In this document: positions 6,001 to 14,919 of the stretch, piece after piece
Layout: each line of letters opens with the position of its first letter
Numbering within the stretch: position 1 is the first letter of the stretch
DNA from: Escherichia coli
Lineage (GTDB): Bacteria > Pseudomonadota > Gammaproteobacteria > Enterobacterales > Enterobacteriaceae
Assembly (NCBI RefSeq): GCF_044324785.1
Contig: NZ_CP172127.1
DNA: 64,000 bases
Direction: 5' to 3' (one strand)
Program-made: the position numbers

Positions 6001-9000
6001 TGGTACCCTTCTCAACCGCTACTGGGACGATCGCGATACGCCACGACCAGAGTCATGGGTGGAAGATATTGCCACCGCCAAAAGCAATCCGAATCGACCT
6101 GCCACTGAAATTTACCGCGACCTGCGCTCTGCCGCTGCGTCTGGCTGGGATTTCAGCTCGCGCTGGATGGACAACCCGCAGCAGTTAAATACCTTACGCA
6201 CCACCAGCATCGTACCGGTCGATCTGAACAGCCTGATGTTTAAAATGGAAAAAATCCTCGCCCGCGCCAGCAAAGCTGCCGGAGATAACGCAATGGCAAA
6301 CCAGTACGAAACGCTGGCGAATGCCCGTCAAAAAGGGATCGAAAAATACCTGTGGAACGATCAACAAGGCTGGTATGCCGATTACGACCTGAAAAGTCAT
6401 AAAGTGCGCAATCAGTTAACCGCGGCCGCCCTGTTCCCGCTGTACGTCAATGCGGCAGCGAAAGATCGCGCCAGCAAAATGGCGACGGCGACGAAAACAC
6501 ATCTACTGCAACCAGGCGGCCTGAACACCACGTCGGTGAAAAGTGGGCAACAATGGGATGCGCCAAATGGCTGGGCACCGTTGCAGTGGGTCGCGACAGA
6601 AGGGTTACAAAACTACGGGCAAAAAGAGGTGGCGATGGACATTAGCTGGCACTTCCTGACCAATGTTCAGCACACCTATGACCGGGAGAAAAAGCTGGTG
6701 GAAAAATATGATGTCAGCACCACCGGAACAGGGGGCGGCGGTGGCGAATATCCATTACAGGATGGCTTTGGCTGGACCAATGGCGTGACGCTGAAAATGC
6801 TGGATTTGATCTGCCCGAAAGAGCAACCGTGTGACAATGTTCCGGCGACGCGTCCACTCAGTGAATCAACAACACAGCCGGTAACACAAAATGAGGCGGA
6901 ACCTACGCCTTAACTTTACTGTATATCGAGCAATGCCATTACGTGCATAAAATTGGCATTGCTCTTTCTTCACCACGAAATACCAAATACTACTCTTTCT
7001 ACGGTCTATGCCTTTATTTTCTTTTATTAGAGAAGATTTTAATTTTATTTTATCAACTTGTTAATCATTACACCTCTATTTATATTTTCCCCCACTCCCC
7101 ATTCTCCCTGACAATTTTCTTGTGGAACAAAGTGTTATTTAAGAAACAAGCAAATCATTCTGTCTCTTTAGACAAATTTTGACATCAAACATGATCTTTT
7201 TCGCTATATGTGTAAGTATATAGCGGTTTTAATTATCAGGATATTACTTATGTCACTAACCAGACGGAGGTTTACACAGATTCTTGCGTCGACATTGTTC
7301 CTGCATCATCTGCCGTCCTTTGCACAATCAGTCAAATTCTGGGCCTCACTGACGCTTCCCGAAGCCCAAAACATTACACGCATCGTCAGCGCAGGCGCGC
7401 CCGCCGATTTACTATTGCTGGCTGTCGCGCCAGAAAAAATGGTCGGTTTTTCCTCTTTTGATTTTGCCCGTCAGGCATTAATTCCATTGCCAGAGCACAT
7501 TCGCCAGTTCCCCAGACTGGGACGACTCGCCGGGCGCGCCAGCACACTCTCGCTGGAAGGGCTTATGGCGTTACATCCCGATTTGGTCGTTGATTGCGGC
7601 AATACGGATGAAACCTGGCTCTCCCAGGCACGGCAGGTTAGCGAACAGACACAAATACCCTGGTTATTGCTTAACGGGAAACTGGAACAATCAGCAGAAC
7701 AGTTAACAACGCTTGGCAAAACGTTAGGCGAAGAGTATCGCGCCGCAGAACAAGCCAATCTCGCCAGCCGCTTCGTTGGTGAAGCTCAGGCATTCGCCAC
7801 CTCACCCGCCGCTAACCTCCGCTTTTATGCTGCGCGCGGTCCTCGAGGGCTGGAAACGGGCTTACAAGGTTCGTTGCATACCGAGGCGGCGGAATTATTA
7901 GGTTTGCATAACGTCGCGCAAATAGCCGATCGCCACGGTCTGACACAGGTTTCCATGGAAAATCTCCTGCGCTGGCAGCCGGATATTATTCTGGTTCAGG
8001 AGGCCGTTACTGCAGATTTTATTCGTCGTGATCCTCTCTGGCAGGGCGTGAAAGCGGTTGCGGAACAACGCATCTTATTTTTAAGTGGCCTGCCCTTTGG
8101 CTGGCTGGATGCCCCGCCGGGAATCAACCGTCTTCTGGGATTACGCAGACTTCACGCCTGGCTGGATCCCGCCATCAATCGCCAGTTTAAAAGTGACATG
8201 CAGCATTACGCCCAACTGTTCTGGCATTGCCCATTAAGTGACGCCGACTATCAAAAATTGGTGGCGAGCTAATGAGAACCGTAAACGGATGTATTTTGCT
8301 GCTGGCAGCTATCAGTATCACTTTTGCCGCCGTAAGTGGGGCTTATCATCTCGATATACAGCAACTGCTGGCGCTCATTCTTCGTCAAGAAAATGTTCCT
8401 GTGCAGGAACAAATTGTCTTCTGGCAAATCCGCGTGCCGCGTATTCTTGCTGCGCTGTTTCTGGGCGCGGCGCTGGCAGGGGCCGGAACCACCTATCAGG
8501 GAATGTTCCGTAATCCCTTAGTGTCACCGGATATTTTAGGCGTCTCCGCCGGTGCCGGACTTGGTGCCTGCGCGGCAATCCTGTGGGGATTATCCATTGT
8601 TTACATCCAGCTGTACGCATTTTGCGGCGGGCTGATGGTGGTCGCGGGCGTCTGGTTGATTACGCGTCGGGTGACCCGCCACGATCCGATCTTAACCCTG
8701 GTGCTGGTAGGCATTGCGTTAGGAACGTTGTGCGGAGCGGGGATATCGCTAATAAAAACGCTGGCCGATCCTTACACCCAGTTACCGTCAATTACCTTCT
8801 GGTTGCTGGGGGGGCTGTCCACCGTGACCTTACGCGATCTCTGCTATGCTGCACCGATCATTCTCACAGGCTCCTTGCCCCTGTTTTTTCTCCGCTGGCG
8901 CATGAATTTACTCACGCTTTCCGACGACGAAGCCCGTTCGCTGGGACTGAACGTGACGCGTCTGCGCTTTGGATTAATTGTCTGCGCCACACTAATCACC

Positions 9001-12000: not shown

Positions 12001-14919
12001 TTTATGTTCCCTATGACGGCAACCTCGATCTGGCGCGGATTCTGACCAACAATTTGGGGGCAGTTGAAGTTTCCAAAGGGTATTCGTCGCTGCTTCAGGG
12101 GCCTAATCAGATGGGCGGAGCCATTAATATCACTACCCAGAAGCCAACAAAACCTCTGGAAGCAAATCTGGGATATCGCCAGGGATGGAGCCGTAGCCAG
12201 GACAATGCCTACGATATGCATGCTTCATTTGCCGCCAGCAGCGATCTGGGGTATTTGCAAGTCAGCGGTAGCCAGCTAAAGCAGGATTTTCTCGGCCTGC
12301 CGCATGGTGTAAATAATGATATTGCAGGCAAACACGGCAAGATGATTAATTCATCGGCTGATGATAAACGCGGCATTGTGAAGCTCGGTTTTACACCACG
12401 CGAAAACGATGAATACACATTGACTTACATTAAGCAGGATGGTGAAAAAGATAACCCGCCATACAGTGGAAGTAGTGGTCAAAAATCACGCTACTGGCAG
12501 TGGCCAGAGTATGACAAAGAAAGTTTTTATTATCAGGGAACGACCCAACTAAACGATCGTTTTACCCTGAAAAGTCGGCTGTATCGCGACACCTTTGAAA
12601 ATACGCTGATGATGTACAACTCGCTGGCTGATTTGAAAAATAAAAAAGGCAGCTACAGCCATTATTCCGATTACAGCGACGGTGCCGGGTTACAACTGGC
12701 AGCCGATGTGCGTGAAAACGATCTGCTGTCGTTTGCCGTTAACTGGAAAGATGACGTACACCGGGAAAAAGGTGCGCCGCACGCCGCTTACGATCGCTAT
12801 GAAGATCGTACCTGGTCGCTCGCCAGTGAATATCAATGGGCTGCTGCCGATAATGTCGATGTCGTGGCTGGAATCAGCTATGACTGGCGCGATAGCGTAG
12901 AAGCGAAAAAACATGAGAAAGATGGCAGCATCACCCATTATGACGACAACAATCAGTCAGCTTTTAACTGGCAGGTGATGGGGAAATACCACTTTGCCAA
13001 TGAAGACACGCTGGCGCTTTCGTACTATGACCGCACACGCTTTCCGACGCTGAAAGAACGTTATACCACGTCCAAACCTGCGTATAACCAGATAGCGATT
13101 GTTAACCCGCAGCTCAAACCGGAACGCGCGCGCGGGGTGGATTTAACCTGGAATGGTGCCTTCACGCACGACTGGGGGTTTGAGGTCAGCGTTTACTATA
13201 ACCGGGTGAGTGATGCCATCCTCTCGCACAATATCGATGCCGATACCATTCAAAATCAGAACAGCGGCACGGTGGATTACAGCGGTCTGGATGCCGGTAT
13301 TAAGGGGAAAATCAGCAATATACTGGATGTAGGATTGAGCTACGCCCTGATCCACGCTGATGCCAAACGCAAAGACATCGGCAAGATAACCGCTCTGCCA
13401 ACGCAGACAATGACCGCATGGATGACTCTCAAACCGTGGGAGCCGTTAAGCGTAACGCTGTCGGAAGAGGCGCGTTCCTCCAGCTACAGCAACAGTGACG
13501 GTTCACAAAAAGCCGCCGGTTTTGCGGTGACCCACATTCGAGCCGATTACACCTTAGGTCATGGCTTCAGCGTCAATGCGTCGGTCAATAACCTGTTTGA
13601 TACCAAATATGCCTACAGTGAAGGGTTTATTGAAGAAGGTCGCAATTTCTGGGCAGGTATCGAGTATACGTTCTGATGTGAAAGCGGATAGCGGCATCTG
13701 TATCGCTATCCGCCTTATGAAAATCTTATTCTCTTCGCAGGAGGCGGAATACGCCCAGCACCAGGATAGCGCCCACCACCGCCACCAGGAAGCTGTGCAA
13801 ATTAAAACCGCTGATGGTGCCGCCAATGCCAAACATGGTCGCCAGCCAGCCGCCGACCACCGCACCGACTATCCCGAGAATACAGGTCAGGAAAAATCCA
13901 CCACCATCACGCCCCGGCATGATTAGCTTGGCGATAATGCCGGCTATCAGGCCAAAAATAATCCAGGCAATAATTCCCATGTTCAGGCCCTCGTTTCGAT
14001 GAATCGGACGCAAGAACTGCTTACGTCAACGCTCTAAGTATAGGCAAGGGCGGAATCGATGCTGGGCGTATGTCGGCTGATTTAAGAACAACATGTAAAA
14101 AATATTCACGCATTTGTATTAAGTTTTGTTAACTGTGACCGATAAACCAAAGACAGTTTGTCAGTCAGGAGTTTTTCCGCGTGAGTCATTACCATGAGCA
14201 GTTCCTGAAACAAAATCCGTTAGCCGTCCTGGGCGTGTTACGCGATTTGCACAAAGCCGCAATTCCTTTGCGTATCAGTTGGAATGGCGGGCAGCTGATC
14301 AGCAAAATACTGGCAATAACCCCGGATAAACTGGTGCTGGATTTCGGCAGTCAAGCCGAAGATAACAACGCTGTGTTAAAGGCGCAGCACATTACCATTA
14401 CCGCCGAAACCCAGGGCGCGAAAGTCGAATTTACTGTTGAACAACTACAGCAGAGTGAATACTTGCAGCTTCCGGCATTTATTACCGTACCGCCTCCCAC
14501 CTTGTGGTTTGTACAACGACGCCGATATTTCCGCATCTCCGCCCCACTCCATCCGCCTTATTTTTGCCAGACCAAACTGGCGGATAACAGTACGTTACGT
14601 TTCCGCCTGTATGATTTGTCGTTAGGCGGCATGGGTGCATTACTGGAAACAGCAAAGCCTGCCGGATTGCACGAAGGCATGCGCTTCGCTCAGATTGAAG
14701 TCAACATGGGGCAATGGGGTGTTTTTCACTTTGACGCCCAGTTAATCTCAATCAGCGAGCGCAAAGTGATTGATGGCAAGAATGAAACCATCACCACTCC
14801 CCGTCTGAGCTTCCGTTTTCTTAACGTCAGCCCGACGGTGGAGCGGCAATTACAGCGGATTATTTTCTCTCTCGAGCGGGAAGCCCGGGAGAAAGCGGAC
14901 AAAGTGCGCGACTGATTTA

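Follow-up and report, generated by a model that had tools for sequence, protein, structure and literature searches.

A putative ModE-controlled, TonB-dependent molybdate acquisition cluster in the treA-ymgE interval of Escherichia coli

We analyzed a 64,000-nt stretch of the Escherichia coli chromosome (RefSeq assembly GCF_044324785.1, contig NZ_CP172127.1; hereafter, the window) and described a six-gene cluster located between treA and ymgE. The cluster probably encodes a ModE-repressed, TonB-dependent accessory system for the acquisition of molybdate, and possibly also of tungstate, in which an outer-membrane receptor and a MolBC-like ATP-binding cassette (ABC) importer are combined with a module of two enzymes, ModD and an S-adenosylmethionine (SAM)-dependent methyltransferase. 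This proposal draws on the gene content of the locus, on a candidate operator and its conservation across Proteobacteria, on the kinship of the importer with MolBC, and on the linkage of both enzymes to molybdate transport (mod) genes in other genomes. The cluster is already known in the literature as prrA-modD-yc73-fepC, and the functional assignment made here departs from its literature and database names. A first-pass annotation of the window had argued that the cluster is not a plain siderophore system, with which our results agree, and had listed molybdate among the metals worth testing; molybdenum is the reading that we favor.

All six open reading frames (ORFs) are located on the + strand within positions 7250-13676, are tightly packed, and have start codons that agree with the RefSeq calls in the nearest genome. 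They encode, in this order, a class III (Peripla_BP_2-type) periplasmic binding protein, whose closest characterized relative is MolA (7250-8272); a MolB-like permease of a type II ABC importer with the FecCD/BtuC fold (8272-9252); a MolC-like ABC ATPase, the 'fepC' of the literature name (9249-10007); a class I SAM-dependent methyltransferase, a member of a narrow family that is associated with molybdate transporters (10017-10829); the quinolinate-phosphoribosyltransferase-like protein ModD, a TIGR01334 family member (10826-11680); and a TonB-dependent outer-membrane receptor of 656 aa, 'prrA' (11706-13676). Neighboring genes overlap by 1 nt at 8272 and by 4 nt at 9249 (GTGA) and 10826 (ATGA), and the two remaining junctions are gaps of 9 and 25 nt. 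Both the ORF positions given in the first-pass annotation and its description of a compact operon, in which a TonB-dependent receptor and an ABC importer enclose two enzymes, are borne out by the gene calls and junctions; the overlaps that it reported are as found here, and the gaps that it gave as 10 and 26 bp are corrected.

The predicted ModE operator is a perfect 8+8+8 palindrome, CGCTATAT-gtgtaagt-ATATAGCG, which occupies positions 7202-7225 (no strand assigned) and ends 24 nt before the ATG start codon at 7250. The published E. coli ModE consensus, ATCGnTATATA-N6-TATATAnCGAT (PMC545781), was scanned as CGnTATATA-N6-TATATAnCG. The palindrome differs from this pattern by one mismatch and is the sole match with two or fewer mismatches in the window; one further, weak site, at 48053-48076, is reached when three mismatches are permitted (chance expectation 0.23). 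The operators known from K-12 are recovered by this pattern too: that of modA has two mismatches and ends 19 nt upstream of its ATG, and that of moaA has one mismatch; the cluster site is therefore closer to the consensus than the modA operator. A hairpin at 7201-7226, flagged as terminator-like in a scan for promoters and terminators, is this same palindrome.

To assess conservation of the site, we aligned 28 methyltransferase homologs and scanned 80 loci from reference genomes (∼1.45 Mb in total). The scan yielded 84 motif matches at 13/16 or better, as compared with 3-13 in composition-preserving block shuffles, and the distribution of scores is bimodal (52 matches with a score of 12, 11 with 13, 26 with 14, 35 with 15, and 13 with 16). 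Eighty of the 84 matches fall at the starts of cluster genes (-150 to +400 nt), and a ModE-like site is present in 46 of the 50 loci that carry the importer. Candidate sites are conserved upstream of orthologous clusters in γ-, β-, and ε-proteobacteria. A second ModE-like site immediately precedes the receptor gene in Morganellaceae, Shewanella, and Pectobacterium, and in β-proteobacteria the receptor gene is itself the first gene and bears the site. When the intergenic regions of E. coli through Serratia are aligned, the palindrome hardly varies, whereas its flanks diverge. Binding of this site by ModE, and the resulting repression, are predicted. The observation made at first pass that the cluster has no cognate regulator stands for genes located in cis, and the conserved ModE operator explains the gap.

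The treA gene is followed by a terminator-like hairpin on the + strand at 6928-6964, found in a repeat search (11-nt perfect arms followed by TTTCTTC), which separates treA from the cluster; thus, the cluster needs its own promoter. A -35-like hexamer, TTGACA, lies on the + strand at 7179-7184, upstream of the palindrome and 17 nt away from it; enteric orthologs, from E. coli to Serratia, all keep its TTGA. TATA-like candidates for a -10 box occur solely inside the palindrome, at a spacing of 20 nt from the hexamer. A scan for the Fur box gave no match with three or fewer mismatches; the best local match was 13/19, and the window contains 30 matches at that level. No Rfam match was found at E ≤ 1 over positions 6500-14300, the molybdenum cofactor (Moco) and cobalamin riboswitches included.

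In its predicted control, the cluster resembles the known ModE targets of K-12, modA and moaA. The operator belongs to the same sequence class and is placed just upstream of the first gene, at a distance of 24 nt as compared with 19 nt for modA, and the predicted logic, repression by molybdate-bound ModE, is the same. The systems differ in that the type I ModBC transporter of K-12 is replaced in the cluster by an unrelated type II permease of the FecCD fold, in that the cluster has an added outer-membrane receptor and two enzymes, and in that only ∼39% of E. coli genomes carry it.

The importer components point to the molybdate/tungstate transporter MolBC-A of Haemophilus influenzae. The best match of the permease among solved structures is MolB/HI1471 (2nq2_A; 6e-65, 223 bits, full length), followed by scores of 174 bits for FhuB, 169 for HmuU, and 146 for BtuC. 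The best single-domain structure match of the ATPase is MolC/HI1470 (2nq2_C). The binding protein carries a twin-arginine signal (TRRRF); its top match is an uncharacterized Sulfurospirillum protein (4pag), followed by MolA, by sequence and by fold alike. Its AlphaFold model (mean predicted local distance difference test score, pLDDT, of 89.4) has a TM-score of 0.66-0.68 to MolA. On the curated siderophore and heme families the binding protein scores at most 31 bits, compared with cut-offs of 205-325.

MolBC-A (HI1470-HI1472) is a low-affinity type II ABC importer. It is under repression by molybdate, which it transports in vivo, and MolA recognizes tungstate as well as molybdate, as does ModE (PMC4031551). 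The molABC genes adjoin modD (HI1473) in H. influenzae (PMC3928620), as the importer genes share an operon-like array with modD here. The two loci have in common a related permease and ATPase, an associated modD, and repression by molybdate, which is reported in H. influenzae and predicted for the E. coli cluster; MolA is the closest characterized binding protein. They differ in several respects. The Haemophilus locus has neither a TonB-dependent receptor nor a methyltransferase gene (PMC3928620); the E. coli binding protein has a Tat (twin-arginine translocation) signal and shares only ∼20% identity with MolA; and the regulator of the mol genes is reported as unknown (PMC4031551), whereas a ModE operator is predicted for the E. 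coli cluster. Molybdate is the predicted substrate of the E. coli importer.

The receptor has the hallmarks of its superfamily, namely a signal peptide, a TonB box, and the plug and 22-strand barrel domains. Its N-terminus reads MRLKKRYLCTALSLAFTQQAVA / AQESDTLTVWS, with DTLTVWS as the TonB box. It has full-length matches to models of TonB receptor subfamilies and plug-domain matches to solved receptors, and falls under the cut-off of every curated receptor family (127.5 bits vs 316.85 for TonB-hemin; 126.5 vs 223.5 for TonB-siderophore). TonB dependence in vivo is a prediction. In its overall architecture the cluster matches the Fur-regulated systems that pair a TonB-dependent receptor with a type II ABC importer (FhuA-FhuBCD, ChuA-ChuTUV, and BtuB-BtuFCD): a plug-and-barrel receptor bearing a TonB box is combined with a class III binding protein, an ATPase, and a permease of the FecCD fold. 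In contrast to these systems, the cluster has no Fur box or B12 riboswitch, its receptor scores under the cut-off of every curated family, and two non-transport enzymes, whose relatives are linked to mod genes, are embedded in it.

Both enzymes belong to recognizable families, so the family-level similarity assumed for them at first pass was confirmed. ModD scores 499.6 bits on TIGR01334 (cut-off 178.85). On the NadC model TIGR00078 it reaches 136.5 bits, under the cut-off of 198.4. We compared it with the catalytic set of the Mycobacterium tuberculosis NadC (R105, R139, K140, H161, R162, K172, E201, D222). The catalytic K172 is replaced by Phe163, a residue with at least 90% conservation across the ModD family, and R105 by K94, whereas R130, K131, H152, R153, E195, and D216 of the quinolinate-phosphoribosyltransferase active site are retained. 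Identity of ModD with NadC was rejected, given the score under the cut-off and the incomplete catalytic set. First described in Rhodobacter in the early 1990s, ModD has reportedly remained an orphan 'molybdenum transport protein' ever since. The methyltransferase matches the Pfam families Methyltransf_31 and Methyltransf_25 at about 6e-11. Its predicted structure is confident, its structural neighbors are generic only, with TehB-like proteins and S-methyltransferases among them, and two of its cysteines, C68 and C126, are invariant.

Both enzymes are linked to mod genes in other genomes. Aliarcobacter has the operon modE-modA-mop-modB-modC-methyltransferase-modD, confirmed with NCBIfam models; Halomonas has modB-modC-methyltransferase-modE; and in β-proteobacteria the order is modABC-receptor-DUF2478-binding protein-permease-ATPase-methyltransferase...modD-modE. 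Lone methyltransferase genes in Mixta, Budvicia, and others still bear a ModE-like site. Fusions join ModD to ModC/WtpC-type ATPases and to Mop domains, and the gene neighborhoods of ModD include ModD-ModE-ModABC, MoaE/MoeB/FdhD, and a gene for an iron-molybdenum (FeMo)-cofactor-binding domain. Both enzymes occur with ModABC, an importer of the free oxyanion, which argues that they act on cytoplasmic molybdenum handling and not on an imported organic carrier. We think that the methyltransferase and ModD are linked to molybdenum rather than to the importer, and that they may function in cytoplasmic molybdenum handling. The first-pass annotation had proposed that an organic compound or a metallophore, once imported, is processed by the two enzymes; this proposal is weakened by their presence in modABC operons that have no receptor or type II importer nearby.

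Several further associations of the module were observed. Small proteins with the FeMo-cofactor-binding domain (PF02579) are encoded beside a modD gene (locus L089, 1946-2353) and 3 kb from the lone methyltransferase gene of Shewanella mangrovi (locus L003, 13279-13788). A DUF2478 (PF10649) gene replaces modD beside the methyltransferase gene in six loci of β-proteobacteria, Bordetella and Castellaniella among them. The DUF2478 and methyltransferase genes stand together in the importer operon or form a two-gene pair of their own, which hints that DUF2478 and ModD are alternative partners of the methyltransferase. In four Edwardsiella loci only the methyltransferase and modD genes are retained, behind a ModE-like site. 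Because a protein of E. tarda fuses a remnant of the ABC ATPase to the methyltransferase, deletion of the importer genes in Edwardsiella is suggested.

Taken together, these data are consistent with the following model. When molybdate is plentiful, molybdate-bound ModE would bind at 7202-7225, in a position like that of the modA operator, and block transcription; when molybdate is scarce, the six genes would be expressed as a single transcript. The TonB-dependent receptor would then concentrate the substrate across the outer membrane, and the Tat-exported binding protein would pass it to the MolBC-like type II ABC importer. ModD and the dedicated SAM-dependent methyltransferase would act in cytoplasmic handling of molybdenum and not on an imported organic carrier.

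Several points weigh against this assignment. ModE binding, molybdate-dependent expression, and transport are all predictions from sequence. Systems that pair a TonB-dependent receptor with a type II importer normally carry bulky chelates, and neither enzyme has an obvious role with a free oxyanion. The sequence match of the binding protein to MolA is partial in addition to its low identity, and in the fold comparison iron- and heme-binding proteins score nearly as well as MolA, which itself binds molybdate weakly, with a dissociation constant of about 100 µM (PMC3928620). Finally, no convincing σ70 -10 box was found at normal spacing from the conserved TTGACA hexamer at 7179-7184.

The main rival explanation, which we consider unlikely, is that the cluster imports molybdenum or tungsten on an organic carrier under ModE control. 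The carrier could be a 'molybdophore' of the catecholate type, a chelate from the host or the diet, or a pterin or cofactor fragment, and the methyltransferase and ModD would dismantle or modify it, freeing the metal, along the lines proposed in the first-pass annotation. Such a function would suit a receptor and a type II ABC importer with the architecture typical of transporters of bulky chelates (B12, heme, siderophores), the distance of the binding protein from MolA, and the co-transcription of both enzymes with the importer; moreover, ModD keeps most of the quinolinate-phosphoribosyltransferase active-site residues and may act on an N-heterocyclic acid. However, both enzymes are also found in mod operons that have no receptor or type II importer (in Aliarcobacter and in the ModD-ModE-ModABC arrangement), lone enzyme genes with a ModE site exist, and genes for biosynthesis or export of a carrier are absent nearby. 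In addition, the closest importer, MolBC-A, carries the free oxyanion (PMC4031551).

Other readings are less likely still. A system directed at tungstate or at other analogs of molybdate, which we consider improbable, would be either a tungstate importer or one in which the methyltransferase detoxifies selenium, tellurium, or arsenic oxyanions that enter when molybdate transporters are derepressed. The recognition of tungstate by both ModE and MolA (PMC4031551) and the fusions of ModD to WtpC-like (tungstate-type) ATPases are in line with the former, and the latter would fit the small-molecule class I fold of the methyltransferase, its TehB-like and S-methyltransferase structural neighbors, and its invariant C68 and C126.

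Uptake of iron, siderophores, or heme is the function attached to the cluster in the literature and in databases. The name prrA-modD-yc73-fepC is given to S-loop#83/OI#55 (ECs1693-1699) of E. coli O157 (PMC1890555), and genomic region 9 of the extraintestinal pathogenic E. coli (ExPEC) strain BEN2908 is the same cluster, described as 'possibly mediating iron uptake' (PMC12928451); a literature listing gives it as a 6.4-kb region common to ExPEC strains (PMC12928451, PMC1890555). Guyer et al. 1998 and Ye & Xu 2001 are the sources behind both papers, in which the iron assignment is based on homology only; the label of a putative iron-uptake system dates from 1998. The gene content of our cluster matches that of the named one, with 97.6% identity over the full length in O157:H7; the cluster of the uropathogenic strain CFT073 was matched by description. 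The first-pass annotation missed a name that exists, and no substrate had been characterized under that name. In a full-text literature search with incomplete coverage, we found no substrate, regulator, or phenotype reported for the cluster, nor, with the older literature incompletely covered, any paper that ties it or any TonB-dependent receptor to ModE or molybdate. The same gene cluster is treated in the literature as a putative iron uptake system borne on a pathogenicity island, which an older claim places in CFT073, whereas here it appears as an apparently ancestral treA-ymgE locus with predicted ModE control, and no link to iron was found in its sequence.

We regard the iron reading as very improbable. 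Besides the published statement, it can draw on public product names ('iron ABC transporter substrate-binding protein', 'hemin transport ATPase', next to the neutral 'TonB-dependent receptor'), which protein clusters with thousands of near-identical database sequences carry, and on the weak similarity of the receptor to heme and siderophore subfamilies (127 bits, under the cut-offs). Against it, a conserved ModE operator is present in place of a Fur box, the scores on iron-family NCBIfam models are all far under their cut-offs, and the cluster is embedded among mod and modE genes in other phyla. Least probable of all is the uptake of corrinoids, cobalt, or nickel raised in the first-pass annotation, for which the best NCBIfam matches of the permease (BtuC, 242 bits) and the methyltransferase (CpaM, corrinoid-protein-associated methyltransferase, 43 bits) would speak, since both are far under the cut-offs (461 and 180 bits), no cobalamin riboswitch was found, MolB outscores BtuC by 77 bits among solved structures, and the receptor scores 70-80 bits on BtuB models with cut-offs of 600-836.

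The distribution of the cluster was determined by a megablast search of positions 6914-13725 against 5426 complete E. coli genomes. The full cluster is present at 95% identity or more in 2139 of them (∼39%). Of the 5336 matching places in this search, 12 are on plasmids, and a few genomes have two or three places. In K-12, ycgY occupies the position of the cluster, and the match to the query is limited to its last 73 nt. This shared segment (13653-13725, + strand) consists of the terminal 24 nt of the receptor ORF and the downstream spacer, which survive in K-12, and it marks the boundary of a deletion or replacement there.

Outside E. coli, treA-adjacent clusters were identified in E. albertii, eight Citrobacter species, Raoultella, and Enterobacter. 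The ymgE gene also follows the cluster in E. albertii and in Citrobacter-type loci, and the Raoultella ornithinolytica and Enterobacter loci matched treA only. The gene order binding protein-permease-ATPase-methyltransferase-ModD-receptor is kept in Escherichia, Citrobacter, Raoultella, Serratia, Yokenella, and Enterobacter, and the identical six-gene order is also found in Affinibrenneria, Pectobacterium, Erwinia, Morganella, Proteus, and Providencia. Given the synteny in E. albertii and Citrobacter and the receptor remnant in K-12, we conclude that this is an ancestral locus, which the K-12 lineage has lost through deletion or replacement. A horizontally acquired island was considered and rejected in view of the G+C content of the cluster genes (about 52-55%, like that of the flanks), the absence of mobility genes, the synteny in E. 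albertii, Citrobacter, Raoultella, and Enterobacter, and the K-12 remnant. The suggestion made at first pass that the locus is strain-variable holds; the variation reflects ancestral presence and loss in K-12 rather than gain elsewhere.

Signs of decay were observed in several relatives. A frameshift interrupts the permease gene in E. coli N3, the closest genome (locus L001, 5359-6338); the binding-protein, permease, and ATPase ORFs are broken up in Citrobacter koseri NCTC10786 (locus L010, 7207-9991); and the receptor ORF is split in E. albertii (locus L009, 11669-13609) and in one Morganella morganii (locus L047, 11760-13744). A 3.2-kb contig assigned to an actinobacterial 'Collinsella sp.' metagenome-assembled genome (JAIJJM010000374.1) is 99-100% identical to the ATPase-methyltransferase-ModD-receptor segment of E. 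coli and is almost certainly a mis-binned E. coli contig.

The chromosomal gene order in the window is dhaM, treA, the six-gene cluster, ymgE, ycgR, emtA, and ldcA. The cluster is directly flanked by treA, with its stop codon at 6913, and by ymgE (13726-13980, - strand), and there is no space for an insertion sequence or integrase between these genes and the cluster, in line with the absence of both noted at first pass. Between the convergent receptor and ymgE genes, folding detected a hairpin with an 11-bp stem at 13684-13713 (no strand assigned; -18.9 kcal/mol, z = -3.7), a probable terminator for this junction. The spacer between treA and the cluster (38% G+C) contains a 79-aa ORF at 6943-7182, which has no RefSeq annotation and is probably spurious. 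Elsewhere in the window, an AT-rich intergenic region that holds the weak ModE-like site at 48053-48076 also has a Fur-box-like 14/19 sequence at ∼48239-48263 (gcttatattcatcattatc / attcatcattatcattata); it is unrelated to the cluster.

Molybdoenzymes, among them nitrate, dimethyl sulfoxide, and trimethylamine N-oxide reductases and formate dehydrogenases, drive anaerobic respiration, and respiration of this kind underlies the bloom of Enterobacteriaceae in the inflamed gut and their persistence in the urinary tract. Poisoning of the molybdoenzyme pathway with tungstate is under exploration for editing of the microbiota. How molybdate passes the outer membrane under scarcity is an unsettled question. 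More tentatively than the assignment itself, we propose that the cluster may provide the first dedicated TonB-dependent route for molybdenum across the outer membrane. This route would occur in ∼39% of E. coli genomes, O157:H7 and ExPEC strains among them, and in many other Proteobacteria, and would be coupled to a conserved module of the methyltransferase and ModD, or DUF2478 in β-proteobacteria. The module would perform a previously unrecognized chemical step in the handling of molybdenum or tungsten, which could be activation, discrimination from analogs, or release from a carrier. If the cluster is indeed a ModE-controlled, TonB-powered molybdenum scavenger, a long-standing 'iron uptake' and virulence-associated marker would be relabeled, and the 'iron' and 'hemin' product names on thousands of near-identical database sequences would be corrected. 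The functions of ModD and of the new methyltransferase family would become directly testable in E. coli, and the receptor system would offer a surface-exposed, lineage-variable target.

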